IMG/VR virus record: IMGVR_UViG_3300024306_000013
Direction: 5' to 3' (one strand)
Origin: a virus
DNA length: 64,000 nt
The position numbers and the translations under genes were made by a program. The notes beneath the pieces were generated by a model that was not told the origin of the DNA, did no database searches, and saw only the letters and a list, made by a program, of their open reading frames with translations. Of the stretch, positions 36,991 through 51,480 are shown one piece after another (position 1 is the stretch's first letter; each line of letters begins with the position of its first letter).

Positions 36991-37002
36991 AGTCTGCTCC
37001 CG

Positions 37003-37200: not shown

Positions 37201-37209
37201 CTGTGCTCC

Positions 37210-37392
37210 TTAGAAATGTGCCTCGATACTGTCCAGCAAACCATCCTCGAAAGCTTCAGAATACATCCAAAGGATGTCCTTGCGGAAGAACCGTTCAAGC
37301 TCGCGTTCAGTGGGCTTACGGCCTGTCAGCTCCTGGACTTCTTGCTGTACCTGCTTGATCATCCGTTTGGGGATCTTGACGGTGATTTCCAT
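37210..37392 (-). CDS. Early hypothetical protein
   Basis: 60 aa, coupled to the upstream gene. Confidence 0.6.
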   Translation of the reverse strand: MEITVKIPKRMIKQVQQEVQELTGRKPTERELERFFRKDILWMYSEAFEDGLLDSIEAHF

Positions 37393-37661
37393 TACTGGAC
37401 CTCCAGCATGTTGGCTGGCACACGATAGCGTCCCAGGGCTGTGCGCACGATGACATTCTTGATGGCCACCTTCTCAACGGTCCCGCTCACACGCTGCCCT
37501 GTTCTGCTGCTGGTAAATGAGACGTTGTCCCCCAGGGCGATTGATGCTGCTGTACGCTTAGAGAGGCTGTTGCGACGCAGCTTGATCAGATCGATCAGCT
37601 CTGCTGTATCTGAGACGGTTGAGTCACGGAGGATGAAATCACGGATGTTTGCTGGGATCAT
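37392..37661 (-). CDS. Early protein with an SH3/KOW-like C-terminus
   Basis: LGDNVSF...GTVEKV..KNVIV; AGGAGCG RBS. Confidence 0.65.
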   Translation of the reverse strand: MIPANIRDFILRDSTVSDTAELIDLIKLRRNSLSKRTAASIALGDNVSFTSSRTGQRVSGTVEKVAIKNVIVRTALGRYRVPANMLEVQ

Positions 37662-37717
37662 GTTGCGCTCCTAAGTTGTTTACAGTGTGTGTATTGTACT
37701 GTCAGGACAGGCTGGCG

Positions 37718-37864
37718 TCAACCACGTAGACCGCGTAGATAGCTCTCACGCAGGAGCCGACGCTTTTCTTTGTAGCGTAGCTGTCTGGCCAAAAAGCCAG
37801 CAGATTCAAACCAACCTTGTAGGCAATGACGGGTTTGTCGGATACGCCTCTCTCGCATCTTCAT
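37718..37864 (-). CDS. 48-aa Arg-rich early peptide
   Basis: MKMRERRIRQTRHCLQGWFESAGFLARQLRYKEKRRLLRESYLRGLRG*; own promoter and AAAGGAGCGAAC RBS. Confidence 0.5.
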   Translation of the reverse strand: MKMRERRIRQTRHCLQGWFESAGFLARQLRYKEKRRLLRESYLRGLRG

Positions 37865-37898
37865 GTTCGCTCCTTTGTTTCATGTTCCAATTATAGCC

Positions 37899-38225
37899 TC
37901 AAGCCGCGGCCCTGTCAACCAATTCTGCGTAGTCCATGCTGGGTTCAGCGTGGCGGATCATGCCCTCGTAATCCAGCTGCGACTTCTCAAACCAGCTGAG
38001 GTAGTCATCACCTTCGATAGACCAATCGATGATGTTCTCGCGGAAGTAGTCGTCATCGCGCTCCACGCCTGCTGCTGCGACTATCTCGTCATAGTCTGCG
38101 TTCAGAGGCACACCCAGGATCTTGTATTCTGATCCACCTTTGGCCTTCCAGTGGAATTCACCTGTGAATCCCGTGTGAGCTGCGTAGTTCTCATAGACCT
38201 GTGTACGGATTACCAGCATAGCCAT
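37899..38225 (-). CDS. Early hypothetical protein
   Basis: TQVYENYAAH...WKAKGGSEY; promoter plus AGGAGCG RBS. Confidence 0.7.
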   Translation of the reverse strand: MAMLVIRTQVYENYAAHTGFTGEFHWKAKGGSEYKILGVPLNADYDEIVAAAGVERDDDYFRENIIDWSIEGDDYLSWFEKSQLDYEGMIRHAEPSMDYAELVDRAAA

Positions 38226-38296
38226 TTCACGCTCCTTGTTCTAACTATGACTCTAGTATACTAAATTTGGATTGGGCTGTCAACCAAAAAGATCAG

Positions 38297-38334
38297 AAAA
38301 AAAAGCACTGTGGCATTGCTGCAACAGTGCTTTT
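38297..38334 (-). terminator. Intrinsic terminator containing the TGTKG-N8-CMACA palindrome
   Basis: Minus strand AAAAGCACTGT-tgcagcaatgcc-ACAGTGC-U8. Confidence 0.8.
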
Positions 38335-38340
38335 CAAGTT

Positions 38341-38370
38341 GGCTAATCCGGGAGCGAATCGGGTTAAGCC
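38341..38370 (-). ncRNA. Candidate 3'-UTR hairpin A with the anti-RBS loop AUUCGCUCC
   Basis: GGCUUAACCCG-AUUCGCUCC-CGGAUUAGCC, lying between a stop codon and a terminator. Confidence 0.55.
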
Positions 38371-38678
38371 AGTTCTGCTACCTTCTCGGGGGCAGCTTTC
38401 ACAGCTTTCGGGGCCTTGGCCACTGGAGCTGGATTCTTCTTCGCGATGTACTCGATCGCGGCCTGTACAGCGGCATTGCCACTGCCGAAACCCACACTCT
38501 TCATGTGAGCTGCGATCTCACCTTTGGTCATCGGATGAGGAAGCTCGACGAGGTCCACATCGCTGTGTCCATTCTTGTCCAGGATCTTGATACGCATGAC
38601 GTCGTTCGCGAAACGAACCTTGGTCTTGCCATTAAGGGTGCTAACACCCGCTACAGAGAACTTCTTGTCAGTTGCCAT
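38364..38678 (-). CDS. Hypothetical protein with an Ala/Lys-rich tail (host gene of hairpin A)
   Basis: FSVAGVS...KVRFAND...KNGH.DV.LVELP..MTK; AAGGCAA leader. Confidence 0.75.
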   Translation of the reverse strand: MATDKKFSVAGVSTLNGKTKVRFANDVMRIKILDKNGHSDVDLVELPHPMTKGEIAAHMKSVGFGSGNAAVQAAIEYIAKKNPAPVAKAPKAVKAAPEKVAELA

Positions 38679-38745
38679 TTTAGTTGCCTTTCATTGCCTA
38701 AGTTGTGTATGTAGGGACCATCCCCATCATACTGTTAGTGTATGA

Positions 38746-38952
38746 TCATTTGGTTTGGCTGTCAACCATTTGATCTGCCAATCTGTCGATCCTACAGGAG
38801 ACCGACTGAGTTTCGCCAAGAGCTTGTATGAATTCATCGTCATAGACCAAGTCCTTGACTGTAAGCTCGAACAGCTCGTCGACCTTTTGGGGGTCTTCCT
38901 TGCCGTCCGAACCCAATTCCATCACTACCACCCACGCGATCTTACGACTCAT
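38746..38952 (-). CDS. Hypothetical protein (68 aa)
   Basis: Start re-assigned to MSRKIAW, overlapping the end of the upstream gene. Confidence 0.55.
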   Translation of the reverse strand: MSRKIAWVVVMELGSDGKEDPQKVDELFELTVKDLVYDDEFIQALGETQSVSCRIDRLADQMVDSQTK

Positions 38953-39553
38953 CCTTCTGCCTCTCTTCGGCACCCTCGCGGATCCATTGCGTGAGCTCTT
39001 CTTCGTTTTCGCGCTCGTATTCTTCCATCTGTTCGGAGATACCAAACGCATCGTCCAAATCACTGGGCAGTTCATCACGCACCTGCTGGCTACGCATTTC
39101 GCCCAGCTCATAGTAGTCGTCATCGCCATCTTCGAACACACCAGCGTAGGCCATGCCTGGTTCATAATACATGGCTCGCACGGAGTAGCCCTGCTCGACC
39201 AACTCCTGATAAACTCCGATGGGCGGCGACCATGCTGAATCAAAATAAGCAGTCAGCGTGTTGCCATCTACCTGGGGATCTTCACATTCCACATCCCATT
39301 TGGTGCCCCAGCGGCTGGTCTGGAAACTATACCAGTCTGTGTGTCCATACTTCTCAAGGTTGGCCTTCTGCTGTGCTTCGTGAGCCTCACGCTGATCCTC
39401 GCCCATGAAGCCTGACACTGTGTCAGTGAGCTCTTTAGGAGTAGGAATCACATGTTGGCAGAACTCGCCTGCTTTAAGGGCCTGGGCCAGTGCTTGGATC
39501 TTAGCAGGATCCTCATGGCTGATTTCCACTGTGTTGTTGCACCAATTTGGCAT
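38942..39553 (-). CDS. YubB/Api92-like ferredoxin-fold protein (DUF1281-like)
   Basis: MPNWCNN, WY..Q..RWGTKWD, FDSAWSPP. Confidence 0.75.
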   Translation of the reverse strand: MPNWCNNTVEISHEDPAKIQALAQALKAGEFCQHVIPTPKELTDTVSGFMGEDQREAHEAQQKANLEKYGHTDWYSFQTSRWGTKWDVECEDPQVDGNTLTAYFDSAWSPPIGVYQELVEQGYSVRAMYYEPGMAYAGVFEDGDDDYYELGEMRSQQVRDELPSDLDDAFGISEQMEEYERENEEELTQWIREGAEERQKDES

Positions 39554-39584
39554 AGAACGCTCCTTCAGTTAATGATAGTGTATT

Positions 39585-39800
39585 TTACTTGCTCTGTTTC
39601 AATTTGTCAACCAAATACTGATTGGCCAAGTTCTGATCCACCCGATCCACAAACTTCTGCTCGATCTCACGTGATGCTCGATCAGCGATCTGGCTCAGGG
39701 TCCTCAGTATCTTGGCCGCGCCCATGGCTGTAGTCTCTGGATCGTCCAGTGCGTCCAGAGCGCGACGCATGTAGTCTAGTTCTTCTCGTTTAACGGCCAT
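39585..39800 (-). CDS. Hypothetical protein (71 aa)
   Basis: Start re-assigned to MAVKREEL. Confidence 0.5.
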   Translation of the reverse strand: MAVKREELDYMRRALDALDDPETTAMGAAKILRTLSQIADRASREIEQKFVDRVDQNLANQYLVDKLKQSK

Positions 39801-39978
39801 AATAGTCTGCGTTACGCAGTCCCAATGTGCCACACCACATGATCGCGCAGCCAACCGCGCTGACCAACACACCGTAAAGCAGTCCCATGTCGTCCATGCT
39901 CTGCTCCACACCGCCCACGCCAAATGCTGTCAACAGCAGTCCGACCATGAACACAAACATTGATGCTTTCTCTGACAT
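39790..39978 (-). CDS. Small two-TM membrane protein
   Basis: Two hydrophobic segments around GVGG.E; promoter plus AGGAGCG RBS. Confidence 0.65.
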   Translation of the reverse strand: MSEKASMFVFMVGLLLTAFGVGGVEQSMDDMGLLYGVLVSAVGCAIMWCGTLGLRNADYYGR

Positions 39979-40073
39979 ATCGCGCTCCTTTTGTTTAACT
40001 ATGCCCATATTATAGCAATTTGGGCCCAGGCTGTCAACCAATTTTTTCAACTTTTTTTCTTCAATGATTTCAA

Positions 40074-40334
40074 TTAGTTATGTCGGATGTACACAGCAAA
40101 ACGATTAGCATCCTGCTTCCAAGTACGGCTTTGATCCCTGAAACGCCCACGTGGACCTCTGTAGATCGTCTCAGTGCGCAGCTTGAGACGCTTCATGAGA
40201 GCTCGCACACGATCCAGGTGCTCCATGGGAATATCATGGAAAAGGCTAGCCCTGCCCTGGCCCGAAGCATACTGATTCAGGAAGTCCTGATCCTGTTGGC
40301 TGAGGCAGAAGAACAGGAATTTGTCCACGATCAT
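40074..40334 (-). CDS. Hypothetical protein
   Basis: Start re-assigned to MIVDKF (ATGA overlap). Confidence 0.5.
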   Translation of the reverse strand: MIVDKFLFFCLSQQDQDFLNQYASGQGRASLFHDIPMEHLDRVRALMKRLKLRTETIYRGPRGRFRDQSRTWKQDANRFAVYIRHN

Positions 40335-40585
40335 CCCCAATCTTTGAAGCAGCCAGCGGCAGTGTTGTCGTTGTAGCCCTGGTTGTATTCGGTCACTGAC
40401 GCACAATCAGAGACTTCAACACGGGGACCTGAATCACCGCCAACTCCACCGTAGTGAGGATTACGGCGACGGCCATAGTATGAGTCTGCGGATCCACGAT
40501 CATACAAGCTGCCGTGTTGCTTGCGATCGAACTGCCAACCCTTGAGGATCCCTACCACACGCTCTCTTTCACCTTGTTCGTACAT
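40331..40585 (-). CDS. Early hypothetical protein
   Basis: HGSLYDRG.ADSYYGR..NPHY; RBS AAAGGAGCGAAU. Confidence 0.7.
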   Translation of the reverse strand: MYEQGERERVVGILKGWQFDRKQHGSLYDRGSADSYYGRRRNPHYGGVGGDSGPRVEVSDCASVTEYNQGYNDNTAAGCFKDWG

Positions 40586-40644
40586 ATTCGCTCCTTTAAG
40601 TTATGTCAGTAGTATAACAGCAGTTGCGCCTGCTGTCAACCAAT

Positions 40645-40839
40645 TTAATCCATGTTGACCTTAGGGTCTTTCTTTAGGCCCTTGTGATGCGCATCGCTCA
40701 CGCACACAGCCTTGGCGGTCAGGCGATCCGCGGCCACTTCCCGGGCTGCAGCAGCGCAGCTTTTCTCGGTGGGGAAGGGCACTACGACCTTGTCTACATA
40801 GGTAGGTCCCTGATACAGCGCGATGATCAGCCAAAACAT
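40645..40839 (-). CDS. Hypothetical protein
   Basis: 64 aa with a F.TEKSC..A..VC Cys pair. Confidence 0.6.
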   Translation of the reverse strand: MFWLIIALYQGPTYVDKVVVPFPTEKSCAAAAREVAADRLTAKAVCVSDAHHKGLKKDPKVNMD

Positions 40840-40973
40840 CAGCGGATCTCCACAGCAGCAATCTCACGGGGATCCAAGCGGAACTGTTCCCAGACCAAGC
40901 AAGCAGCACGGAAATCACGTGCGACCACATCGTAAGCTACACCCGAATCCATTACAAAGCGATAGCGTTTCAT
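40839..40973 (-). CDS. 44-aa early peptide
   Basis: MKRYRFVMDSGVAYDVVARDFRAAC...; promoter at 41000-41028. Confidence 0.55.
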   Translation of the reverse strand: MKRYRFVMDSGVAYDVVARDFRAACLVWEQFRLDPREIAAVEIR

Positions 40974-41050
40974 TTCATTTGCTCCTTTGTTGTATCCCTA
41001 ATATAGCAGCAGCAGCAGTTGCGGTCAACCAAAAAAACAGGCACCCTGAA

Positions 41051-41086
41051 AGAAAAAAGGGACTGTGGCATTTCTGCAACAGTCCC
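41051..41086 (-). terminator. Intrinsic terminator containing the palindrome
   Basis: Minus strand GGGACTGT-tgcagaaatgcc-ACAGTCCC-UUUUUU. Confidence 0.8.
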
Positions 41087-41101
41087 AAGTACCACCCACT
41101 A

Positions 41102-41371
41102 TCAAGCGCCGCTATAGTCGTAATCGTCGTAGTCCGGCTCATAGGGTTCATCGTCGTCTTCAACGATTGAGAGGCCCAAGCTGATGATCACGTCTTCTAC
41201 TTCAGTGATCGACACACCCAACTGATCTGAAATCATCTGGATAGCCTCGCGATCTGTCCCGTAAAGGCTGACAAGATCCATAACCTCGTCCTCAAGCATG
41301 GGACCATCCTCGTCAACCATGACTCCATCATCATCATACATCGGATCTTCGAAAGTCTTCATATAGCTCAT
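41102..41371 (-). CDS. Highly acidic small protein
   Basis: 89 aa, about one third D/E. Confidence 0.6.
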   Translation of the reverse strand: MSYMKTFEDPMYDDDGVMVDEDGPMLEDEVMDLVSLYGTDREAIQMISDQLGVSITEVEDVIISLGLSIVEDDDEPYEPDYDDYDYSGA

Positions 41372-41529
41372 TGACCTGCCTCCTTGACAGTTTTGGATGC
41401 CTCTTTGGCCACTTCGGTAACCAAAGCCTTACCCTGGGTTGAAATGAAATTAACCGTGCCTGTGACCAAGTTGATAACAAACATTGGTGCCAGGATGATT
41501 AGCGCGATGATTACAATCCATTTTGCCAT
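41368..41529 (-). CDS. 53-aa membrane-anchored peptide
   Basis: MAKWIVIIALIILAPMFVINLV...; promoter plus AAGGAGC RBS. Confidence 0.6.
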   Translation of the reverse strand: MAKWIVIIALIILAPMFVINLVTGTVNFISTQGKALVTEVAKEASKTVKEAGQ

Positions 41530-41580
41530 AGTTGCTCCTTTACGAAAGTAAGTGTATTATACAAGAACTTTGGGTTCCTG

Positions 41581-41799
41581 TCAACCAAAGAATAATCCCA
41601 CAACATAGATCACGAGCAGCCCGCCATTGATCGCCACTAGATTCCATTCACGGATTCTCAGCGACCAAATCAAGTACAGCAGCGCACCTGAGTTGAGAAG
41701 ATAGATGTTAAGGGGATCGATGCGCAGTGAAGTACACAGCGCACCAGCGAGAGTGATAGCACAAGCTATCCATTTGAGGTAAAAGTTCGTATCCTTCAT
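41581..41799 (-). CDS. Small three-TM membrane protein
   Basis: Three hydrophobic segments; own promoter. Confidence 0.65.
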   Translation of the reverse strand: MKDTNFYLKWIACAITLAGALCTSLRIDPLNIYLLNSGALLYLIWSLRIREWNLVAINGGLLVIYVVGLFFG

Positions 41800-41831
41800 A
41801 GTCCGTATTCTAGACTATTTTGGACAGCTTG

Positions 41832-42248
41832 TCAACCGTTTTTTGGAGAAGAAAGAGAGATGTTGTTTTTCTGCAACAGTTCACGTAGCACAGCAGCTTG
41901 ATCCCCACTGACCGTGTACTTGGCAGCTTTGAACCGTGAACGCAGCTTGTCTACCAGCTCGTGGAAGTCGGCACCCTGCGCCATGAACTGGCCGTCTTCA
42001 TCGTCGTAGAGGAAATAGATCCCATCGTGCTGCTCGATGCGCAGCTGATAGACGGGGAGATCGTCCTCGTCGTCCTCTTCTTCGTTCCTGAGGAAGTCCA
42101 GGGCTTTCTCACGCAGCTCTTTGCGTTTAGTGTCTGTGTCCACGCCCAGTTCTTCTAGTGCGTCGCGCAAGTTGGCTTTGAATACGATCTTGCTGACTAC
42201 CCATCCTGCGTAAGCACCTGCCAGCCATGCTATGATTAATTCAATCAT
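41832..42248 (-). CDS. Membrane-anchored hypothetical protein
   Basis: N-terminal TM segment; IEQH.G.YFLY...FMAQG. Confidence 0.65.
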   Translation of the reverse strand: MIELIIAWLAGAYAGWVVSKIVFKANLRDALEELGVDTDTKRKELREKALDFLRNEEEDDEDDLPVYQLRIEQHDGIYFLYDDEDGQFMAQGADFHELVDKLRSRFKAAKYTVSGDQAAVLRELLQKNNISLSSPKNG

Positions 42249-42256
42249 CTTCGCTC

Positions 42257-42493
42257 CTATCTTTTGAGTTTGGGTTTTGCTCGTTCTTTAAATTCTCTGT
42301 CCACGTAGTATTGTACTAGGGCATTCTTGATCATGACAGTAAGGTCTAGGCCCTGATCGTCGGGCACTATAAATCGGACTGGACAAGTTCCCCACCCACC
42401 GTACTCTAGGAATTCGTTATAATACCGCCTATGCTGCTTGTTGGAGGGATCAAATGCTACCAATGGTCTACAATAGTATTCTAGCTTGCTCAT
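42257..42493 (-). CDS. Hypothetical protein
   Basis: RP.VAFDP.NK.HR..Y..FL....WG.CP.RF. Confidence 0.65.
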   Translation of the reverse strand: MSKLEYYCRPLVAFDPSNKQHRRYYNEFLEYGGWGTCPVRFIVPDDQGLDLTVMIKNALVQYYVDREFKERAKPKLKR

Positions 42494-42600
42494 ATGGTTT
42501 TATTTACGTGATCAGGGTCATCGTCCTTTCGTATTGTGTTTATTTTAACTGTTTTTATCGTTCTTGTCAACATACACGCACACGTAAGCAGCGGGGCCAC

Positions 42601-43218
42601 TTACTTATGGCCAATGATCATGTGCCGGGTAAAAGAGTTGTTTGGGTAGTTAAAAGTGATAGAGCCCGAATAGAGGCACTCTGCGAGAGGATACAGATCT
42701 TTAAGATCTTCCTGGGAAGTGATCCGATTGATATGATCAGGGATAGCCAGATCGCTGCCCTGTATGGCCACTATGGTGCCTTTGGGTATGTCGTCAAACC
42801 ATTTGGTCTCGGCTACATGTTCAGCAGAAGTCATGATGATCACATGCGGGTTGTCTACAGAGTAATCTATGTAGTTAATGTCGCCCGTCTGTGCTTTGAA
42901 CTGCCAATCCTGTATTTCCCAGAACTTATTGATCTTGTCTGCGATAGGTTGGCAAGCAGGATCCCGGTCGATGCTGCGCACATACTTGATCGGGATCACT
43001 GCCCTGGTGCGCATGATCAGATTGGTCACTCCATACCAGCCTGCGAAGATCCAGACCTTGTAACCATCTGCGGGAGCTTGTAGGGGTTGTAGGCACTCTT
43101 CCAATCGCTCGATCAGCCAGGCCTTTGAAGCGACCTGGCTGCTAGCGAAACTGTCGTAATCGAATAGCGGACGGGTCGCTAATAGACCCGCCAGCCAATC
43201 ACGAAGTCTTTTCATCAT
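42601..43218 (-). CDS. Class I SAM-dependent methyltransferase-like protein
   Basis: IFAGWYG, SIDRD, TSAEH. Confidence 0.6.
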   Translation of the reverse strand: MMKRLRDWLAGLLATRPLFDYDSFASSQVASKAWLIERLEECLQPLQAPADGYKVWIFAGWYGVTNLIMRTRAVIPIKYVRSIDRDPACQPIADKINKFWEIQDWQFKAQTGDINYIDYSVDNPHVIIMTSAEHVAETKWFDDIPKGTIVAIQGSDLAIPDHINRITSQEDLKDLYPLAECLYSGSITFNYPNNSFTRHMIIGHK

Positions 43219-44410: not shown

Positions 44411-44529
44411 TGGACGCTCCTTAACTGTATATATGTATTATAGCACAAGCCCTAGACCCTGTCAACCGGATTGAAAAGGGTGGGGGAGCACCCTGGGCAG
44501 GCACTCCCCCTGAGGGCCACAGGGAGGTC

Positions 44530-45615
44530 TCAGTTCTCCATGGCCTTCAAAACATACTTGCCAAAACGCTTGTGGAACTCGTCGAAGTTCGTCATCTTGC
44601 TGGCGTCCAAAGGCAAGTCATAGTTGGTGAGCGCGGTCTTAGCACCCATCACAACCAACTCAGTTGGGAAATTGTCCATCATGTAGCGGAAGAAGTTATC
44701 TGCCATAGCATCCCAACCCTTGACCTTCTTATCCGCACGGTCCTTGAGCTCGTAGCAGAGGCTAACGGTCAAAGAATACATCGCCGACACTTCCTTGATC
44801 TGGAGATCCTTGACCTTGCCGTCTAGAATGTCTTCTGCCTTAGGCAGTTTACCTGCGATCTTTCGGTGAGCCATGAACTTGATGCCCAGACCATCGCCAA
44901 CAGCACCAGCGATCAAGTTCTGGAGTGTGTCGACATCCACATCTGGATCTTTGAGCAGATCGCTCACGAAAGACCAAGAACGAGGAGTTGCGAATGCGTG
45001 TGAGCTAGACTTAGAGTCGAAGTCAAACAGGTCCTGCTTGGCAAAACCCAAGTAACCAACCACGTCTGCGTGGACCTTGTTCATAACAGCCCACTCCTGG
45101 AAGTCATCGAAGTCAGGCTTCATTTCCAAGTGTAGGAAGCGGTTAGCCAGTGGCTTAGGCATACGGTAGGTAACACCACGGTCACCGTCACGGTTACCAG
45201 CGGCAACGATGTCAACGCCATCGGGCAGGACATAGGTACCAACACGGCGGTTCAAGACCAACTGATAGGCCGCAGCCTGGACAGCCGGAGGAGCAGAGTT
45301 AAGCTCGTCTAGGAAGATGATAGCCTTGCTGGCAGGATCGCGTGGCAGTTCAGAGGGAGGGGCCCACTCCATAGTCTTGCTGTCAGAGTTGTAATAAGGG
45401 ATACCCTTGATGTCAGTGGGTTCCCAAAGTGGCAAGCGAACGTCGATCACTTCGCGATCGGCGCTCTCACCAATCTGCTTGACGATGTCGGATTTACCGA
45501 TGCCTGGAGGGCCCCACAAGAAGATAGGACGACGCATCTTGATAGCGTGACGCAGACTGCGGATAGCACCCTTGGGACCTACGGTGCGGATATTTGTTTC
45601 AGTTGCTTTGGACAT
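44530..45615 (-). CDS. MoxR-like AAA+ ATPase
   Basis: GPPGIGKS, FLDELN, AAGN, LANRF, TPRSW. Confidence 0.88.
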   Translation of the reverse strand: MSKATETNIRTVGPKGAIRSLRHAIKMRRPIFLWGPPGIGKSDIVKQIGESADREVIDVRLPLWEPTDIKGIPYYNSDSKTMEWAPPSELPRDPASKAIIFLDELNSAPPAVQAAAYQLVLNRRVGTYVLPDGVDIVAAGNRDGDRGVTYRMPKPLANRFLHLEMKPDFDDFQEWAVMNKVHADVVGYLGFAKQDLFDFDSKSSSHAFATPRSWSFVSDLLKDPDVDVDTLQNLIAGAVGDGLGIKFMAHRKIAGKLPKAEDILDGKVKDLQIKEVSAMYSLTVSLCYELKDRADKKVKGWDAMADNFFRYMMDNFPTELVVMGAKTALTNYDLPLDASKMTNFDEFHKRFGKYVLKAMEN

Positions 45616-45725
45616 TGAGACCTCCTAAAAAAGTTGCCCAGTTGTGTTTAACTATGACTCTATTATAGTGTATCTGCTTTAGGCAGTCAACCACTATTTT
45701 CTTTCTAGATCAATGTGTTGCAGAT

Positions 45726-46355
45726 TTACAACACCTTGACGTAGTTCAGTTGTGCTGTGTTGTCCGGACGAAGTGCCTTGACCTTGGCCTTCACCCGCAG
45801 CTCCCCGGCTAGCTCCTTGGAGAACCAGAAGTCCACGAAGCTTTCGTTGAGCCGTGCCTGGATGCGGTACTTGCCGAAGTTAGGATTGTATCGCGAGCTG
45901 ATCACTGTGATGTCCCCTATCACAGTTTCACCTACAGCAGCAGCGAGAGGCTGGGCGGAATAGATTTCTCGCTTGAGTTCTGTGCGCTCCTGATCACGGA
46001 CAGCCACGGAAGGCAAGCAGCTGATCACGCTGAAGTCATAAAGATCTCGCCCCGTGAACTCTTCCTTAGCAGCTAACTTCATGGCCGTGGCTTGGAAGTC
46101 ATTGAGCTTGCCCGCCAGGGCCAACAGCGTGTAGGATTTAAAGTGATCCCGAGCAGTGCGACCAGCAGCGTAGTCGACTTCAGTGACCTGGGTGAAATCG
46201 TTGTCGCGGAGCCATTGCTTGACCATAGCTTTGTTGGCTCGCTTGTCCAGCACATAGCCGTCATCTGTGTAACGGCCTTTGTCCTCTTTGAGATACTCAC
46301 CGTTGATACGTTGAGCAGCGGCTGCGGCACCCCAAACTTGATCTGCTGTGAACAT
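45726..46355 (-). CDS. Hypothetical protein with a possible C-terminal OB fold
   Basis: 209 aa; promoter plus CAGGAGCGAAC RBS. Confidence 0.65.
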   Translation of the reverse strand: MFTADQVWGAAAAAQRINGEYLKEDKGRYTDDGYVLDKRANKAMVKQWLRDNDFTQVTEVDYAAGRTARDHFKSYTLLALAGKLNDFQATAMKLAAKEEFTGRDLYDFSVISCLPSVAVRDQERTELKREIYSAQPLAAAVGETVIGDITVISSRYNPNFGKYRIQARLNESFVDFWFSKELAGELRVKAKVKALRPDNTAQLNYVKVL

Positions 46356-46460
46356 AGTTCGCTCCTGTGTTCTAACTATGCCTCTATTATACGGTATTTA
46401 ATCAGGGCTGTCAACCAAAAGATCTGTTGTATTTTTGCAACATGGCGGGAGTGCCGGCCA

Positions 46461-46495
46461 AAAGAAAAGGACTGTGGCTTCTGGGCCACAGTCCC
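46461..46495 (-). terminator. Intrinsic terminator containing the palindrome
   Basis: Minus strand GGACTGTGGC-ccagaa-GCCACAGTCC-UUUUCUUU. Confidence 0.8.
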
Positions 46496-46532
46496 CAAAG
46501 AACGCCCCGGGAGCGAATCGGCTTGTTCTTTG
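46496..46532 (-). ncRNA. Candidate 3'-UTR hairpin B with the anti-RBS loop AUUCGCUCC
   Basis: CAAAGAAC-AAG-CCG-AUUCGCUCC-CGG-GGC-GUUCUUUG, lying between a stop codon and a terminator. Confidence 0.55.
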
Positions 46533-46539
46533 AAACCGA

Positions 46540-46815
46540 TTACTCTACGGACATTCCCAGAGCCTTGGCGCGATAGCCAAGTGCCACGATCTCACGTGAC
46601 GGACGGCCCATCTCGTACTCAGTAACCTGGACGCCGTTGCCAGCCTTACGGTTACGAGTGTAAACAGCGAAACCCTTGTAGCGGATGTCGCTAACAGTTG
46701 CTGATGGGTTCTTGATACCAAAACGCTTGGTGATCTGTGCTTCAGAAAGCTTCTCACCGTTGAACAATGCGTTAAACAGCTTGCCTTCTTTAGTTTCGAG
46801 GTTGATACGCTTCAT
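46540..46815 (-). CDS. Winged-helix-like DNA/RNA-binding protein (host gene of hairpin B)
   Basis: LS..QI.KRFGIKNP.ATVS.IR..G..VY...Y.MG.PSR; start re-assigned to MKRINL. Confidence 0.7.
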   Translation of the reverse strand: MKRINLETKEGKLFNALFNGEKLSEAQITKRFGIKNPSATVSDIRYKGFAVYTRNRKAGNGVQVTEYEMGRPSREIVALGYRAKALGMSVE

Positions 46816-46913
46816 ATTTGCCTTTTCCTTTAAGTTAAAGTATAGCTGATTCAAATCAGCATGTTAATAGTATACCTAAAAGTTCACACAAGGTCAACCT
46901 TTAGGTTTACCAA

Positions 46914-47111
46914 TTAGTTCTTTCGTACCGTCACGTTGGCACGGAAGAACGCTCCCAGCACCACCACAGCAAACCAAGTTTCCATGCTGTATGGAATGGC
47001 CAGTGCGGGGAACAGGGTATTCGCTGCCCAGATCGTGAGCAGGGGGCCCACGACCAACAGCAGAATGACTAGGACGACGACGCCCAAAACGATCGATGTA
47101 GACTTATACAT
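46914..47111 (-). CDS. Small membrane protein
   Basis: GPLLTIWA.NTLFP...IPY...TW. Confidence 0.65.
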   Translation of the reverse strand: MYKSTSIVLGVVVLVILLLVVGPLLTIWAANTLFPALAIPYSMETWFAVVVLGAFFRANVTVRKN

Positions 47112-47361
47112 GGAATTCTAACTCCTTAGGTTCTCCGTCTTCTTCTTTAGCTGCTGGAATCACGTAGGGATCCGCAGGAATCAGACGATTGATTGCTCGG
47201 GCAGACTTCACGGCACTGCCCCCGATATAGACTCTGCTGTAGTGTTCCTGACAGTAGGCCTTGCCCGGGATCACGGCACTGCCGCATGTGAACAGGTTCT
47301 CGTGATCCCTGATTGGGTCCTTGTCGGGCCCAATCCATTGACAGGTGTGGAATAGCATCAT
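47104..47361 (-). CDS. GcrA C-terminal-like Cys/His domain protein
   Basis: CQWIG.D...CG.....G.AYC.EH. Confidence 0.6.
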   Translation of the reverse strand: MMLFHTCQWIGPDKDPIRDHENLFTCGSAVIPGKAYCQEHYSRVYIGGSAVKSARAINRLIPADPYVIPAAKEEDGEPKELEFHV

Positions 47362-48428
47362 TGCCCCCTCTTCATTACAGTGACTTCAGCCATGCTCTGC
47401 CAGCTGTCCGGAAAGCTCTTGCGCAGGTCTGCCACTTTGAGCACCGTACGCAAGCTCAGCTCACGCATCTTAGCACGATTGCCAATCACATATTCGATGA
47501 TCTCGTCGCGCTCGTTGCCTTCGAAGTCATAGGTATCCAACATGCCGTCCTGTACGATCTGCTTGATACGAAGCACCTTCTCACGATCTGTGTCCATCTG
47601 GAGATCGATGTAGTGGCAACGGCTTTCAAGAGCAGCCAAGTGATCCTGTAGCTTTTTACTGCGCACGTTCTCGAACTTGATGTTAGTAATGAAGATCGCA
47701 CCTGCTTTAAACTCAAACTTGTCAGGCACTCCTTCGTTACGTAGCACACGGCTGTCAGTGTTCCACGAAATGGTACGCTTCTTGCTGGAATCCAGTGCGG
47801 CCTTGAGGATGTTCAAGCTGAGATCGTCAAGCAGTACAGAGTCGCAGTCATCGAACACGATAACGTTACCTTTCTCTGAATACTTGTAGAGCTTGGCGTA
47901 CAGGCCTACCGCAGACATCGCGCCTTTGACCACTTCGTACTTGGGTCGGCGATTGCCCAGGGTGTTGAACAGATCTTCTTTAGACAGTACTTCTTCTACG
48001 CCAAAGGATTTGCCCACACCCGGAGGACCCGTCACGATCATAGCACGTACAGTACCTTCTTTGACTGCCTGTGTCATGTGCTTGAGCACTTCAAAACGGC
48101 CACGCAGTCGCTCGATGATCTGCTCATCGGTTTCATGTGCGACTACTTCATCGCTGACTTTGATCTGCTCCAAACTTTTGTCTCCTGCGGGTGTAGCTGG
48201 CACACCGCTGACGACTACGTAGCTTTGTGCTGACGAGCAACGGATACGGATTGAACGATCTGGGATACCAGCGTTCTTTGGGTAGACTGAGCCACCTGCT
48301 ACAGTTACATAGCCACCGTTGGCACCCTCACGATATTGTTCCACGAGCTCGAAACGGTTACCCGCCATGGACACTTCTTGCCCACGGATCTTATAGGTAC
48401 CTTCGCGCATCTCGATGATTGCTGGCAT
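47358..48428 (-). CDS. AAA-family P-loop ATPase
   Basis: GPPGVGKS, VFDDCD, LKAALD, IFITN, ALESR. Confidence 0.8.
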   Translation of the reverse strand: MPAIIEMREGTYKIRGQEVSMAGNRFELVEQYREGANGGYVTVAGGSVYPKNAGIPDRSIRIRCSSAQSYVVVSGVPATPAGDKSLEQIKVSDEVVAHETDEQIIERLRGRFEVLKHMTQAVKEGTVRAMIVTGPPGVGKSFGVEEVLSKEDLFNTLGNRRPKYEVVKGAMSAVGLYAKLYKYSEKGNVIVFDDCDSVLLDDLSLNILKAALDSSKKRTISWNTDSRVLRNEGVPDKFEFKAGAIFITNIKFENVRSKKLQDHLAALESRCHYIDLQMDTDREKVLRIKQIVQDGMLDTYDFEGNERDEIIEYVIGNRAKMRELSLRTVLKVADLRKSFPDSWQSMAEVTVMKRGQ

Positions 48429-48512
48429 TGTCGCTCCTAAAGAAAGTTGTTAAACATGTCAGTATTATACTGCCAGTGGGGGCTGTTGTCAACCCCCACG
48501 AGCCCTATAACA

Positions 48513-48866
48513 TCAAATTTGGGCAAACTTGTTGAGTGCTTCCTGCGCACCCGCGTCCAGCATACAGGCATCCATCGCCGCTTGCTTTTCACGTGCGACC
48601 AGCTTGCGATAGTCCTCAAGCTCTGCTTTCTTTGCTTCCATAGCAGGCCACTCCACATCCTGCGGGTTGAGGTAAGGACCCGTGTAGTCTACCTTGTCTG
48701 CTTTAAGGGTGATCTCGCCAGTGCGGATGCCCTCAAAGACCATGCCCCAGGTAGGCTGTTGTGGACGACCGCTGGGTCCAAAAAGTGCCACTGCCAGCGA
48801 ATTGACCTTTTCCTCTGCGATCTCGTTGAGACGGCGGACGAAATACTCACGTGCTTGTTGTTCCAT
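48513..48866 (-). CDS. Early hypothetical protein
   Basis: 117 aa; promoter plus CAGGAGCG RBS. Confidence 0.65.
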   Translation of the reverse strand: MEQQAREYFVRRLNEIAEEKVNSLAVALFGPSGRPQQPTWGMVFEGIRTGEITLKADKVDYTGPYLNPQDVEWPAMEAKKAELEDYRKLVAREKQAAMDACMLDAGAQEALNKFAQI

Positions 48867-48937
48867 GTTGCGCTCCTGTGTGTGTTAAACAAGTCTGTAT
48901 TATACAGGGCTTAGGGTGCCCTGTCAACCCCTTTTGG

Positions 48938-49375
48938 TTAGGCTGCTTGCCTATCTTCGCAGAACTCGTAGAAGCGACCAATGGGCCCATCGAACAGAGC
49001 AGTATTAGTATCGCTTTGGGTGAGCCCAAACATATTAAAGCCACGATCGCGGACCTGTACATGTATCACACGATCACGCTCGTAGACATGATACTCATAG
49101 TCCTGGCCGCAGTCTACGGCACTCACAGGGTGTAGATAGAACTGCCCGGGGCCGTCCTTGAAGTGTGCGACCAACTGTGCTGCGAGGCAGCTCATGCCGT
49201 TGAACACGGGGCGATCGTCACCGCGCAGGCCGTTGACCAGTGTGCCCTGTGTGAGGAAACGTGCTAGCTCAGCACCGTGGCCCTCCGGATAGCCATCGTA
49301 CTGGCGATAAAGGTTGATGATGGCTGCGTCGGTGATGTCGCCATCATAGACGAAAGTGAGACAACGTGTACCCAT
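48938..49375 (-). CDS. Hypothetical protein with a YDGYP motif
   Basis: MGTR...YRQYDGYP.GHG..L..FL. Confidence 0.7.
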   Translation of the reverse strand: MGTRCLTFVYDGDITDAAIINLYRQYDGYPEGHGAELARFLTQGTLVNGLRGDDRPVFNGMSCLAAQLVAHFKDGPGQFYLHPVSAVDCGQDYEYHVYERDRVIHVQVRDRGFNMFGLTQSDTNTALFDGPIGRFYEFCEDRQAA

Positions 49376-49455
49376 AATGCGCTCCTGTGTGTTGTTGACT
49401 GTGCCTGTATTATAGCAGCAGGGGAGCCGTTTGTCAACCCCCCTGCTGCTGCTAG

Positions 49456-49758
49456 TTATTCCATGCTAGCAAGCTCGTCCTCTTGCATGCCCTGCTCTGT
49501 AAACGTCACAGCGTAGCCCAGTGCCTCGCTAATAGCGTCCTCAAAGCCCGTGTCTGTGTAAATGTCCCATGTCGTGTCGTGTGTAACATAAATGCTCTTA
49601 TAGTCATCTTCTTCTGTTACACTAATCGCAGTCACACGCACTTGTCTGCCTGCTTCACAGCCCCACAAGCCGTCACCAGCTGTAGTAACTATAAAGTCGC
49701 AGTCGTATTCACGTGTTAACATGCCGTCTTCGTTGTGCTCTGCTGTCAATGTTAGCAT
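49456..49758 (-). CDS. Acidic early protein
   Basis: Start at MLTLTAEH after AAGGAGCGA. Confidence 0.65.
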   Translation of the reverse strand: MLTLTAEHNEDGMLTREYDCDFIVTTAGDGLWGCEAGRQVRVTAISVTEEDDYKSIYVTHDTTWDIYTDTGFEDAISEALGYAVTFTEQGMQEDELASME

Positions 49759-49819
49759 ATGTCGCTCCTTGTTAAACATGTCTGTATTATACTGTCGCTA
49801 GCCCAATCTGTCAACTGCT

Positions 49820-50074
49820 TTATGCTGTGCTGTACTTAGGAAATTCAAATCCGCCATGCGCCCCGTACCACTTGCCGTTGCTGCGCATGTAGTAGCCCTG
49901 CGCATACCACCTCGCACACTGTCCGCTAATGCTGCGGTGGTGGCTGGCATGCTGCCCCGCCTTGCTCATCAGTTTCGCTTCTGCCAGTGTCAGCACGTCA
50001 TGTGCCGCCGCGTCCGCTCTCGCCGCAGCGTTGCGCAGCTCTGTGGCTTTAATTAATTGCTGTGCTCTGTCCAT
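49820..50074 (-). CDS. Early hypothetical protein
   Basis: Start at MDRAQQ after AAGGAGCG. Confidence 0.55.
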   Translation of the reverse strand: MDRAQQLIKATELRNAAARADAAAHDVLTLAEAKLMSKAGQHASHHRSISGQCARWYAQGYYMRSNGKWYGAHGGFEFPKYSTA

Positions 50075-50125
50075 CGTCCGCTCCTTGTTAAACATGCGGC
50101 TATTATACAGCCTCTGCGGGCAGTG

Positions 50126-50455
50126 TCAACCAAAATCGCCTCGCACATCTGTGTTTAAATTTGGGCGCACCTCACGGCGTATACGTACTTCTTCTCTGTG
50201 TGCCTCAGCCTTGCCGCGTATCACAGCATGTACTATGATGGTGATGTCTTCTTTGTTCGCGACAGTCCGCAGTGCGCGACACAGGGCCCAATCTTTGTTC
50301 TCGCTGTGAGCACGATAGAAGTGCTTGGCAGCACGAGCGCGGACGCTTTTGTTAACAGTGCTCTCTGTCTTAGCTGTCACGCCGATGTAGTTGCCCTGGG
50401 GTACACGCAGCTCGTAGATGATGTGGTTTCTGTCTGTTCGTTTAGCTCGTGCCAT
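50126..50455 (-). CDS. GIY-YIG-like nuclease-domain protein
   Basis: IIYEL...NYIGVT...R...H. Confidence 0.65.
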   Translation of the reverse strand: MARAKRTDRNHIIYELRVPQGNYIGVTAKTESTVNKSVRARAAKHFYRAHSENKDWALCRALRTVANKEDITIIVHAVIRGKAEAHREEVRIRREVRPNLNTDVRGDFG

Positions 50456-50831
50456 CGTTCGCTCCTTCATTGTCAGTATTGTACAGCCATCCGCCCAAAC
50501 TGTCAACCAAAAACAGCAGATTTTTTCGATTATTTTTTCTGTGGCATTCTGAACACAGTGTGGCATTTCTGCCACAGCCCGCCGAGCGCCCCTTAGCTGC
50601 CCAGCACAGACCCCTGACCACAGGTATGCGCAGCACGTGAAGCCGTCGGGATCATCATTCAGCTGCTGTTCATGTGCTGCTGCTCGAGTGATCTGACCGT
50701 GCCCCGCCCAGAGTTCTCACACTGCTGCCCGTGACTGACTCGTGATCGCTGCTCTGCTGACTGTAAATTTACTCGGGTATTTGCTCGGGTCGTTGCTGCT
50801 GCTGTGCTGCTGCTGTGTAGTGAGAGAACAG

Positions 50832-50907
50832 TGGTGGGCCCAGTAGGATTCGAACCTACAGTCAACGGATTATGAGTCCGCTGCTTTAACCGTTAAGCTA
50901 TAGGCCC
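50832..50907 (-). tRNA. tRNA with anticodon CAU, likely Ile2 (lysidine type); CCA encoded
   Basis: GGGCCTATAGCTTAACGGTTAAAGCAGCGGACTCATAATCCGTTGACTGTAGGTTCGAATCCTACTGGGCCCACCA; 76-nt cloverleaf with TTCGAA T-loop. Confidence 0.9.
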
Positions 50908-50915
50908 AACACTGT

Positions 50916-51200
50916 TCACTCGAGGCCGCGAATCCTCGCTTCTATCTCTTCCGTGATCGCTTGATCCCTGCGACCCTTCAGGATGAATCTGTGTAGATCT
51001 TCTATGTGTGTCATGAACACTTCCGGCACTGCTGCTGCTGCGCGATCCATATCCCACTGTGAAGGATAGTGCCGCAACACTGCCCGGGCACGATCCCTAA
51101 TGCTGCTGTGTACACGTGGAGTGGCTTTGGGATCACAGAGATCTCGCAACATGCGTTCAGCTGCGATCACAGCACGATAGCGTTCGTCTGGCAGTGTCAT
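50916..51200 (-). CDS. Hypothetical protein
   Basis: MTLPDERYRAV...TPRV...R.RA..VLRHYP. Confidence 0.7.
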   Translation of the reverse strand: MTLPDERYRAVIAAERMLRDLCDPKATPRVHSSIRDRARAVLRHYPSQWDMDRAAAAVPEVFMTHIEDLHRFILKGRRDQAITEEIEARIRGLE

Positions 51201-51201
51201 A

Positions 51202-51417: not shown

Positions 51418-51480
51418 AGTCTGTATAGTATATGCTCAGATACGCAGTGTGTCAACCAGATCTAGCGCAGCGGGGCCAGT

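Follow-up and report, generated by a model that had tools for sequence, protein, structure and literature searches.

The window, that is, the whole 64,000-nt stretch of DNA analysed here, comes from an uncultured giant phage; among cultured phages, its proteins match those of PA5oct-like and Atu_ph07-like jumbo phages best, at 30-42% identity. The early genes are gathered in one block on the minus strand, with a G+C content of ~0.50 as against 0.36-0.42 in the late region. Starts in this block are repeatedly preceded by AGGAGCG, referred to below as the tag, or by the variant AGGAGCA. The genes are named by their start coordinates; the tag itself occupies minus-strand positions 5-11 nt upstream of these.

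35900..51600, minus strand: early gene block, ~37 mostly small genes and 24 sigma70-type promoters
50460..50466, minus strand: AGGAGCG, ATG 50455 after 4 nt; -10 box 11 nt upstream
50079..50085, minus strand: AGGAGCG, ATG 50074 after 4 nt; consensus promoter 50129-50102
49763..49769, minus strand: AGGAGCG, ATG 49758 after 4 nt; consensus promoter 49814-49786
49380..49386, minus strand: AGGAGCG, ATG 49375 after 4 nt; consensus promoter 49437-49409
48871..48877, minus strand: AGGAGCG, ATG 48866 after 4 nt; consensus promoter 48927-48899
48432..48438, minus strand: AGGAGCG, ATG 48428 after 3 nt; promoter 48492-48464
46360..46366, minus strand: AGGAGCG, ATG 46355 (209 aa) after 4 nt; promoter 46414-46386
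44415..44421, minus strand: AGGAGCG, ATG 44410 after 4 nt; 403-aa DUF2201 metallopeptidase/VWA protein
42252..42258, minus strand: AGGAGCG, ATG 42248 after 3 nt; the sole tagged start without its own promoter
40589..40595, minus strand: AGGAGCG, then AAT and ATG 40585; full 9-nt complement of the hairpin loop described below
39983..39989, minus strand: AGGAGCG, ATG 39978 after 4 nt; promoter 40037-40009
39558..39564, minus strand: AGGAGCG, ATG 39553 after 4 nt; promoter 39610-39582
38230..38236, minus strand: AGGAGCG, ATG 38225 after 4 nt; promoter 38283-38255
37868..37874, minus strand: AGGAGCG, ATG 37864 after 3 nt; promoter 37918-37890
37666..37672, minus strand: AGGAGCG, ATG 37661 after 4 nt; promoter 37721-37693
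37204..37210, minus strand: AGGAGCA variant ahead of ATG 37200
40980..40986, minus strand: AGGAGCA variant ahead of ATG 40973
41533..41539, minus strand: AGGAGCA variant ahead of ATG 41529; promoter 41584-41556

The window contains 19 copies of AGGAGCG, where 5.09 +/- 2.25 are expected, and none of 100 shuffles reached 19. The minus strand between 37666 and 50466 holds 16 of these copies, 15 of which stand 3-4 nt 5' of the ATG of ORFs of 48-403 codons; the sixteenth (45985) is within a coding region. The copies at 21736 and 27692 are internal or lie ahead of a 6-codon frame only. A near-consensus sigma70 promoter precedes 14 of the 15 tagged starts, and in the promoter of gene 49375 a G-run/C-run stem-loop spans the -35 box. 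The product of gene 48428 is a 356-aa AAA ATPase (phrog_1250). As the distance of the tag to the ATG is fixed (3-4 nt) and that to the -10 box is variable (11-25 nt), the tag belongs to the translation start and not to the promoter. Start 36990 is preceded by GGGAGCA. An earlier note on this DNA had listed the 15 AGGAGCG starts and the three AGGAGCA starts, and all of them were found again in the sequence. It had also set the MoxR, ligase, sheath and gp32 genes apart as users of other ribosome-binding sites (RBSs); these indeed read AGGAGGT (MoxR-like gene), AGGAGTG, AGGAGAT and AGGAGGC, respectively. Its association of the motif with early genes is borne out by the counts, since within the window AGGAGCG serves as an RBS in the 36-51.5 kb block only.

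The tag is also present in related phages. Among orthologues of two tagged genes (41-92% protein identity), GGAGCG is found in 50 of 51 and in 53 of 60 distinct upstream sequences, and the A at position 7 (of GGAGCGA), which was not conditioned on, carries 1.7-1.9 bit. The flanking leader positions carry 0.1-0.5 bit only, i.e., the leaders are near-random. As GGAGCG is retained across orthologues with diverged leaders, the CG(A) extension is, on the evidence of these comparisons, maintained by selection and not by recent copying. The earlier note had named a motif that is only a passenger of cassette duplication as the case against its proposal, and this case is disfavoured by the same retention. 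In relatives, the 403-aa gene (start 44410) has AGGAGAGCGA at the tag site; in this variant the SD is moved by 2 nt, with GAGCGA at an unchanged distance from the ATG. In close relatives, whose 403-aa protein is 72-77% identical, the tag is used 2-10 times at each locus, and 91 of the 185 GGAG-type starts of this clade read GGAGCG, 69 of them GGAGCGA. A clade at 52-57% identity in the same protein does not use the tag.

Two conserved hairpins of the early block, both in 3'UTRs and on the sense strand, expose the same loop, AUUCGCUCC, which is the exact complement of GGAGCGAAU.

46540..46815, minus strand: winged-helix (HTH_39) gene, 91 aa, with hairpin A in its 3'UTR
46496..46532, minus strand: hairpin A, outer stem 46532-46525 with 46503-46496, inner stem CCG/CGG, 9-nt loop at 46518-46510
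46457..46496, minus strand: intrinsic terminator directly 3' of hairpin A, 12-bp stem followed by a T run
38364..38678, minus strand: 104-aa gene with a Lys/Ala-rich tail, carrying hairpin B
38341..38370, minus strand: hairpin B, loop AUUCGCUCC at 38359-38351
38297..38335, minus strand: intrinsic terminator directly 3' of hairpin B

Each hairpin is positioned right after a stop codon and right before a terminator, and the 5' stem of hairpin B includes the stop codon TAA itself (38366-38364). The genes that bear the hairpins avoid the tag: the winged-helix gene has the RBS AAAGGAAAAGGCAA and the 104-aa gene GAAAGGCAA, and in the window as well as in relatives such genes use AAAGGCAA-type sites without GGAG. 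The stems change while the loop does not. For hairpin A, 85% of the cells are paired versus 34-60% in slid controls, both sides have changed in six of the nine outer pairs, and none of 500 shuffles reached the observed score. Its homologues include G-U pairs, which are workable on the sense strand only, and in hairpin B of one relative (L018) the inner stem CCG/CGG is replaced by UCG/CGA. A loop-degenerate pattern search found the loop core CGCTCC to be identical in 83 of 83 true homologues, a set from which the other 29 hits, unrelated high-GC contigs, were left out. An Rfam search with the hairpins gave no match. By hand arithmetic, the probability that a given 9-nt loop contains the complement of a specified 7-mer is ~2 in 10,000.

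Hairpins and tag are found together. Each genome has its two hairpins within the 13-15 kb block that contains the tagged starts, and on their strand. In a rearranged relative (G004), both elements have a different genomic location and are again associated, with 17 tagged sites as opposed to none in the control. Thirteen of these 17 sites carry GGAGCGAA, and the tag is also found on the opposite strand, 40-140 kb from the hairpin. Two distant relatives have neither hairpin nor tag. Neither loop nor tag varies in any of the relatives compared, and a joint change was not observed among them. For the most part, their co-occurrence inside one lineage counts as one evolutionary event.

The pairing partners of the tag were compared through duplex energies. 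Against the canonical 16S tail (...CACCUCCUU), which is assumed here and may not be that of the host, AGGAGCG genes give -6.5 to -11.9 kcal/mol (mean -7.9) and AGGAGG genes -10.2 to -11.6 kcal/mol. The claim that CG(A) adds nothing to anti-SD pairing thus holds for the canonical tail. The hairpin loop, on the other hand, gives -10.2 to -14.3 kcal/mol (mean -11.7) on tagged starts versus a mean of -6.2 kcal/mol on 26 other starts, for a short pairing (6-9 nt inside the 9-nt loop) and an energy model that disregards loop geometry. Net of opening costs, loop pairing is favourable on tagged starts and ~0 for the MoxR-like, wHTH and p104 genes. Hairpin A in the window has a competing fold that takes ~4.3 kcal/mol to open, so that some net energies are weak (-0.6 to -4 kcal/mol).

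From the motif, its position and conservation, the covarying hairpins, their exact complementarity and the co-occurrence, we propose, with a probability of roughly 0.55, that the tag is an address through which phage antisense RNA blocks early ribosome sites. The early block would be an array of cassettes resembling promoter-early stem-loop (PeSL) modules, each with a stem-loop, a near-consensus sigma70 promoter, a short G-poor leader, the SD and the ATG. The SD in these cassettes would be extended to GGAGCG(A)(A), of which GGAG pairs with the host anti-SD, and the CGA(A) part, having no anti-SD partner, may serve as a private address. Two early transcripts, the winged-helix mRNA and that of the Lys/Ala-rich 104-aa protein, are predicted to end in a hairpin and an intrinsic terminator. 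Their stable 3' ends may act within the mRNA or as 3'UTR-derived small RNAs, with the loop AUUCGCUCC pairing with GGAGCG(A)(A)(U) on ~15-20 tagged early mRNAs. Such pairing would mask the SD in competition with the 30S subunit, and as the RNA is transcribed and accumulates, early protein synthesis would be limited or shut off.

Parts of this arrangement are known from other systems. PeSL cassettes were described in T4-type phages (Arbiol et al. 2010, PMC2839356; Comeau et al. 2014, PMC4122927). Both there and here, repeated intergenic modules stand ahead of small, mostly orphan early genes and consist of a strong sigma70-like promoter with a G-run/C-run stem-loop at -35/-10, followed by the SD and start codon. 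PeSLs are, however, described as transcription and recombination modules, an extended SD tag or complementary RNA is not reported for them, and the present phage is only distantly related to the T4-type phages in which they were defined. In T4, early mRNAs carry the RegB/S1 target consensus GGAGRAYARAA, and a phage factor uses this SD extension, inactivates early mRNAs and spares most middle and late ones (PMC3014915, PMC1702504). The likeness lies in a GGAG-type early SD with a conserved 3' extension unread by 16S rRNA; T4 uses a protein nuclease with S1 and an A-rich extension, whereas here the extension is CGA(A) and the candidate partner an RNA loop. The c4 antisense RNA of phages P1 and P7 (reviewed in PMC12197685) is likewise a phage RNA whose short complementary loop sequences pair around the RBS of a phage mRNA and block translation, as is proposed here. 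It acts on a single operon (ant) in temperate-phage immunity, whereas here one loop sequence, located in 3'UTRs of a lytic-type jumbo phage, matches the tag of at least 15 unrelated early genes. The Cuckoo RNA family of Alphaproteobacteria, with the loop motif CCUCCUCCC (PMC4615179), similarly has several hairpins with highly variable stems and one identical anti-SD-like loop. Cuckoo RNAs are, in contrast, bacterial, have 2-4 adjacent hairpins per small RNA and mimic the canonical anti-SD, whereas here single hairpins in two separate 3'UTRs match a private, non-canonical SD extension. In bacterial 3'UTR-derived base-pairing small RNAs such as CpxQ and SroC, the regulatory sequence is just upstream of the intrinsic terminator of the mRNA. 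Here too the sequence adjoins an intrinsic terminator, which would allow trans action by a stable 3' fragment, although the seed is in a hairpin loop and not in a single-stranded stretch.

Other explanations have to be weighed against this proposal. The extension might be a passenger of cassette homogenisation, in which PeSL-type modules are copied and recombine, the CG has no function and the loop is the fossil of an inverted fragment. The array matches the published PeSL description (promoters, G-run/C-run stem-loops, 3' SD and start codon), and published PeSL crossovers fall between the SD and -10 boxes (PMC2839356, PMC4122927). Moreover, relatives have GGAGCGAATCG as an actual RBS plus spacer, and the loop with its 5' neighbour corresponds to the reverse complement of this sequence. 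Yet simple copying does not account for the cassettes, as the leaders within a single genome vary from 11 to 25 nt in length and are unlike in sequence; GGAGCGA persists in orthologues though the leaders are near-random, the AGGAGAGCGA variant holds GAGCGA in register with the ATG, and a fossil would not hold a 9-nt loop nearly constant (core 83/83) while its stems co-vary. Homogenisation is thus considered unlikely. A non-trans role of the hairpins, by cis masking of the next RBS on read-through RNA or by protein binding, with the tag conserved for a different translational reason, is just as doubtful or slightly more so. A tagged gene (46355; 38225) follows each hairpin beyond the terminator and a promoter, so a read-through RNA would contain both loop and target, and both hairpins are in mRNAs of likely DNA-binding proteins. 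The cis role, though, accounts for two of the 15 tagged starts and leaves the tag on distant genes unexplained, including those of G004 on the opposite strand, 40-140 kb off.

The earlier note had suggested a second recognition partner for the extension. Its RNA option has gained a candidate in the two hairpins with their complementary loop; its RNA-binding protein or RegB-like nuclease has none among the 20 early-block proteins searched. A protein partner would mean that an RNA-binding protein or nuclease of phage or host, acting as T4 RegB does with S1 or as RegA does, reads GGAGCGA (AGGAGCGA leaders), while the hairpins have another purpose, e.g., as processing or stability elements. It is known that T4 RegB cleaves within the GGAG of early SDs, inactivating early mRNAs, and that its strong sites share a longer consensus, recognised together with ribosomal protein S1 (PMC3014915, PMC1702504). 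The gene may also sit elsewhere, as the window is 64 kb of a genome probably >200 kb. Nevertheless, the motif has a C where the consensus GGAGRAYARAA needs a purine (PMC3014915), no homologue of RegB turned up in the window, Pfam and PHROGs searches placed none of the 20 early-block proteins in the RegB, RegA, S1, KH, Hfq or CsrA families, and the exact 9-nt complementarity of two conserved loops is left unexplained. A protein partner is therefore judged improbable, marginally below the cis role. Least probable is a host-specific preference, in which an unusual 16S tail or other property favours GGAGCGA over AGGAGG. The anti-SD core or its surroundings do vary in some organisms (PMC10783764); still, AGGAGG(T/C) serves several genes of this very phage, the MoxR-like gene and gp32 among them, which implies a canonical host tail, and the tag is absent from late, presumably highly expressed genes.

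Some observations weigh against the antisense reading itself. Two hairpin RNAs would face at least 15 mRNAs made from consensus promoters, and an inverted RBS copy could have left the loop behind as a relic, although this would not account for the invariance of the loop. Regulators and targets also seem to share a promoter class, which makes the timing logic conjectural. If the antisense reading is true, the phage would limit its tagged early genes as a group and leave host mRNAs and its own untagged genes unaffected.

The 64-kb window contains 19 copies of the heptamer AGGAGCG, against 5.09 ± 2.25 copies in dinucleotide-preserving shuffles (shuffle maximum, 11). Sixteen of them are minus-strand copies, located between 37666 and 50466, and in 15 of these 16 an ATG follows 3-4 nt past the motif and opens a reading frame of 48-403 codons. 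These are the same 15 starts, from 37661 to 50455, which the earlier note had described as sharing an unusual ribosome-binding site; the AGGAGCA sites that it had placed at 37200, 40973 and 41529 are also real. The other genes indeed use other sites, namely AGGAGGT (MoxR-like ATPase), AGGAGTG (ligase), AGGAGAT (sheath) and AGGAGGC (gp32), and AGGAGCG serves as the ribosome site of no gene outside the 36-51.5 kb block. The plus-strand copies at 21736-21742 and 27692-27698 share the context AAAACC(G)AGGAGCGA; they do not look like functional ribosome sites, one adjoining an internal ATG and the other preceding a 6-codon frame. A literature search for AGGAGCG returned primer sequences only. The extension GGAGCG(A)(A) is termed the tag here, and the 15 starts are referred to as tagged. 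The features needed for orientation are as follows.

~35900-51600 (-): early block, mostly small genes, including the tagged starts
48428 (-): tagged start of a 356-aa ATPase
46355 (-): tagged start of a 209-aa gene
44410 (-): tagged start of a 403-aa DUF2201/VWA protein

The window covers part of an uncultured jumbo myovirus, with genes for a sheath, large terminase, gp32-like SSB, UvsX-like recombinase, primase, DnaB-like helicase and ATP-dependent ligase. Matches to cultured phages are distant only (PA5oct-like, Atu_ph07 and Phosso, 30-42% protein identity), and a search for a near-identical phage record gave none. The proteins of the early block are mostly small and without family assignment. 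Its G+C content is ~0.50, compared with 0.36-0.42 in the structural and replication region; the step falls between 1-32000 and 33000-56000, the latter comprising the early block and its surroundings, and the relatives display the same contrast (early-block loci, 0.44-0.51).

Could the ribosome itself read the extension? The canonical 16S 3' tail, assumed here for the host, is CACCUCCUUA. The AGGAG of the tagged starts pairs with CUCCU of this tail, and the end of GGAG lies 5-6 nt from the ATG, as is usual for a canonical Shine-Dalgarno (SD) sequence. With the tail so assumed, the duplex energy is -6.5 to -11.9 kcal/mol at the tagged starts (mean -7.9) and -10.2 to -11.6 kcal/mol at AGGAGG starts. 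The C and G of the tag stand opposite C1535 and A1534 (E. coli numbering); CG thus adds no anti-SD pairing and no energy, and the extended pairing of the AGGAGGU type is not formed. The earlier note's statement that CG(A) does not improve anti-SD pairing thus holds against the canonical tail. A CsrA-type GGA site was considered as well but lacks the specificity to account for CG.

The tagged starts belong to small promoter cassettes. In 14 of the 15, a near-consensus sigma70 promoter (TTGACA-N17-TATAAT) is present upstream. Minus-strand promoters matching at least 10 of 12 positions number 24 between 35.5 and 52.5 kb, 11 of them perfect, and promoter-like sites in the block amount to 38 against 16.0 ± 3.6 in shuffles. 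AGGAGCG follows the -10 box at a variable distance of 11-25 nt but always stands 3-4 nt before the ATG, which ties the motif to the start codon and not to the promoter. The tagged leaders differ in sequence and are A/C-rich, nearly without G. For the leader sequence UGUUUAACAA, a likeness to rrn boxA or to the T7 gene 10 epsilon enhancer was considered and set aside, being partial and not kept across leaders. By eye, stem-loops of a G run and a C run span the -35 region in several cassettes (before 49375, 48866 and 48428), and before 46355 and 38225 a terminator hairpin adjoins the -35 box on its upstream side. Such an arrangement resembles the PeSL cassettes of T4-type phages, in which a sigma70-like promoter with a stem-loop, ending in an SD and start codon, precedes orphan early genes (PMC2839356, PMC4122927). 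The shared traits are a strong sigma70-like promoter, placed intergenically ahead of a small early gene, a module that ends in the SD and start codon and, in some cassettes as judged by eye, a stem-loop of a G run then a C run beside or overlapping the -35/-10 region. The gene content between the cassettes varies among relatives.

The block and its vicinity have further features. Two early-block genes, at 41799 and 51417 (-), begin 7-9 nt past a -10 box without an SD (...GACT ATG), and their mRNAs may for this reason be leaderless. The MoxR-like ATPase gene has a long leader of its own at 45615-45690 (-); in relatives (loci L003-L023, upstream of a 361-aa gene) this leader carries a conserved ACTGAGARAG...GAGGTCT ahead of the ATG, which suggests that the gene is controlled separately from the tagged ones. 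A tRNA-Met with anticodon CAT lies inside the block at 50832-50907 (-). It has G at the first position and an anticodon stem without three G-C pairs in a row, and in this it resembles an elongator Met or Ile2-type tRNA and not an initiator; the tag complement is also absent from it, and a role for this tRNA in reading the tag was set aside on both counts. A phage 5-aminolevulinate synthase (ALAS) gene is found at 61424-62602 (-). Its closest relatives (65-69%) are on short contigs in MAGs of Flavobacteriales, Neomarinimicrobiota, Polynucleobacter, Vibrio and others, spread over many unrelated phyla, and most likely represent phage DNA wrongly binned with bacteria; genuine bacterial homologues reach 54-62% only; host assignment through this gene was dropped on account of that spread and of these low bacterial matches.

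In IMG/VR, the relatives of the 403-aa protein number more than 600. At 72-77% identity of this protein, 2-10 AGGAGCG-ATG sites are present per locus; at 52-57%, there are essentially none. When starts were chosen without reference to any SD, as the longest sense-strand ATG frames with 455 distinct upstream regions, AGGAGCG was the commonest 7-mer (84 regions). Among the 185 GGAG-type starts, GGAGCG is found in 91 and GGAGCGA in 69; C follows GGAG in 112 of the 185, and the next position is G in 114. At orthologous starts of 41-92% protein identity, the tag persists in 50 of 51 distinct upstream sequences of the ATPase and 53 of 60 of the 209-aa gene, with 13 of 16 and 11 of 19 in two further sets. 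In the ATPase and 209-aa sets, the flanking leader positions carry 0.1-0.5 bit and the A after GGAGCG, counted unconditioned, 1.7-1.9 bit. The 403-aa gene start in relatives reads AGGAGAGCGA, with GGAG 2 nt further upstream and the distance from GAGCGA to the ATG unchanged. Since the tag is kept while the flanking leaders diverge, and GAGCGA stays in register, CG(A) is, on this comparative evidence, under purifying selection and not a product of recent duplication.

A search for the complement of the tag on the sense strand of the early block yielded two sites, which share the 15-mer CCGATTCGCTCCCGG and lie in two hairpins.

46532-46496 (-): hairpin A, 3'UTR of the gene for a 91-aa winged-helix protein
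46521-46507 (sense strand of the block): 15-mer of hairpin A
38370-38341 (-): hairpin B, 3' end of the gene for a 104-aa protein with a Lys/Ala-rich tail
38362-38348 (sense strand of the block): 15-mer of hairpin B

Both 15-mers lie at most 10 nt from a stop codon, which in hairpin B is part of the stem, and a strong intrinsic terminator comes within ~10-15 nt after each. The 15-mer folds into a 3-bp stem with a 9-nt loop, AUUCGCUCC, seated on an outer stem of 6-10 bp, and this loop is the exact complement of GGAGCGAAU. The two hairpin-bearing genes themselves have an RBS of the AAAGGCAA type, without GGAG, in the window as well as in relatives. An Rfam search gave no family for either hairpin, the sole significant match in the block being the tRNA; a UUCG tetraloop and a tRNA T-arm do not fit as identities of the loop.

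The surroundings of hairpin A have features of their own. The winged-helix gene has two tandem weaker promoters at 46839-46897 (-), where a 16-bp palindrome, GCTGATTTGAATCAGC, adjoins a -10 box and may, from its position, be an operator for autoregulation. A similar hairpin is present in the winged-helix leader of relatives. Another short conserved element, GGCCGGCACTCCC, stands directly past the terminator and ahead of the promoter, at 46440-46455 (-), and also occurs in a relative (L308).

All close relatives whose sequence spans the region have the hairpin element at the same two places. In 18 of 22 individual folds, the loop is unpaired with a probability of 0.73-1.0. In the alignment of hairpin A, 85% of the cells form pairs, against 34-60% with slid partners; six of nine outer pairs have changed on both sides, a covariation reached by 0 of 500 shuffles, and as G-U pairs are present, the fold fits the sense-strand RNA only. 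One relative has UCG/CGA in place of CCG/CGG as the inner stem of hairpin B. A collection-wide pattern scan with six loop positions left free recovered the loop core CGCTCC in 83 of 83 genuine homologues; the remaining matches, including the apparent variants CGCTTT, CGTCTT and others, sit in unrelated high-GC contigs and were rejected. A different loop/tag pair, GCCCUC/GAGGG, was also sought in these loci and gave nothing but noise in coding sequences. One relative carries UAG instead of AUU where the loop starts; in another, a C has become U with a wobble pair retained.

Hairpin and tag also travel together. Each of three long contigs (147-280 kb) has two hairpins, which share both the strand and the 13-15 kb stretch of the GGAGCG-ATG sites. 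In G004, a rearranged relative with a G+C of 0.39, the MoxR/VWA genes lie elsewhere, with other sites, and a hairpin on yet another outer stem is found amid tagged cassettes at 147-154 kb; this record has 17 tagged sites (13 of them GGAGCGAA) against 0 in a reversed control. Two distant relatives lack both hairpin and tag, and in the distant clade L022 the cassette array and a comparable hairpin are both absent.

At all 15 tagged starts, the loop can form 6-9 contiguous pairs with GGAGCG(A)(A)(U), covering the SD. The predicted loop duplex amounts to -10.2 to -14.3 kcal/mol there (mean -11.7), compared with a mean of -6.2 at 26 other starts, and is stronger than the canonical anti-SD duplex predicted on the same tagged RNAs. 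The poorest predicted targets are the two hairpin-bearing genes, at -3.1 kcal/mol. When the opening of the mRNA and of hairpin A is included, net energies of -0.6 to -8.6 kcal/mol are obtained; as the calculation takes no account of loop geometry, these are approximate. The opening of hairpin B takes only 0.1 kcal/mol, so that its net values would be ~4 kcal/mol better than those with hairpin A.

The most economical reading, to which we give a probability of roughly 0.55, is a division of labour within the RBS. GGAG would recruit the ribosome, and CGA(A) would be an address, read by the hairpin loop. The mRNAs of two early regulators would have stable 3' ends, the hairpin RNAs, and these, by covering the SD of the tagged early messages, would limit or end the translation of the latter. 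It is the place before an intrinsic terminator alone that argues for a hairpin RNA being made and accumulating; we infer its stability, the pairing of loop and tag and the direction of the effect from sequence. The wider proposal, that of a widespread uncultured jumbo phage clade with a regulon-wide RNA switch, in which early mRNAs marked by GGAGCGA(A) are silenced by an anti-RBS loop on the 3'UTR hairpins of two regulators and host and late mRNAs are spared, is more tentative, and its chances appear somewhat below even.

Other explanations have to be weighed against this pairing of tag and loop. The tag may have been spread by homogenisation of the cassettes, the loop being a fossil. No joint change of loop and tag was seen among the relatives fetched, all having an invariant loop core and tag, and their co-occurrence is therefore essentially one evolutionary event; a frozen loop and tag are, on the other hand, expected when one loop must match many sites. 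The earlier note had itself allowed that the motif might be a mere passenger of cassette duplication, an objection countered by its conservation at orthologous starts amid diverged leaders, and this explanation is considered unlikely. Slightly less probable is that the hairpins act in cis only or have some unrelated role. A protein as partner of the tag has a precedent in T4, where RegB with S1 selects early mRNAs through GGAG and a 3' extension, with the consensus GGAGRAYARAA (PMC3014915). The tagged early mRNAs likewise have GGAG in the SD, but unlike that consensus the GGAG-type starts mostly carry C then G after it. No RegB homologue was matched among 20 early-block proteins. Of the second partners envisaged by the earlier note, an RNA has gained candidates in two hairpins with an exactly complementary loop. 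A protein is given a shade less weight again. That a host-specific ribosome reads the tag is very improbable, since the phage itself uses AGGAGG sites, which argue for a canonical 16S tail in the host.

With the hairpin loop as reader of the tag, the proposed RNA would take the place of the nuclease of T4. Known phage and bacterial RNAs offer parallels: as in the c4 RNA of P1/P7 (PMC12197685), the antisense sequence is displayed in a loop, and as in the cuckoo RNAs (PMC4615179), the hairpins have an identical loop. Here, too, the complement lies in a conserved hairpin loop, and the predicted complementarity spans the target SD.

Post-transcriptional shut-off of early genes in lytic phages is known mainly from T4, through RegB, RegA and related factors. 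Should the reading proposed here be true, a large environmental group of jumbo phages solves early shut-off by base-pairing alone, with an address in the RBS and a loop that reads it. This would be a new example of regulon-level control exerted by a phage RNA on the phage's own genes, and it would explain why the SD extension is conserved although the ribosome is unable to read it. Such a system would constitute a natural orthogonal RBS/anti-RBS code, the RNA counterpart of the T4 RegB nuclease, and a compact natural design for addressable translation control.
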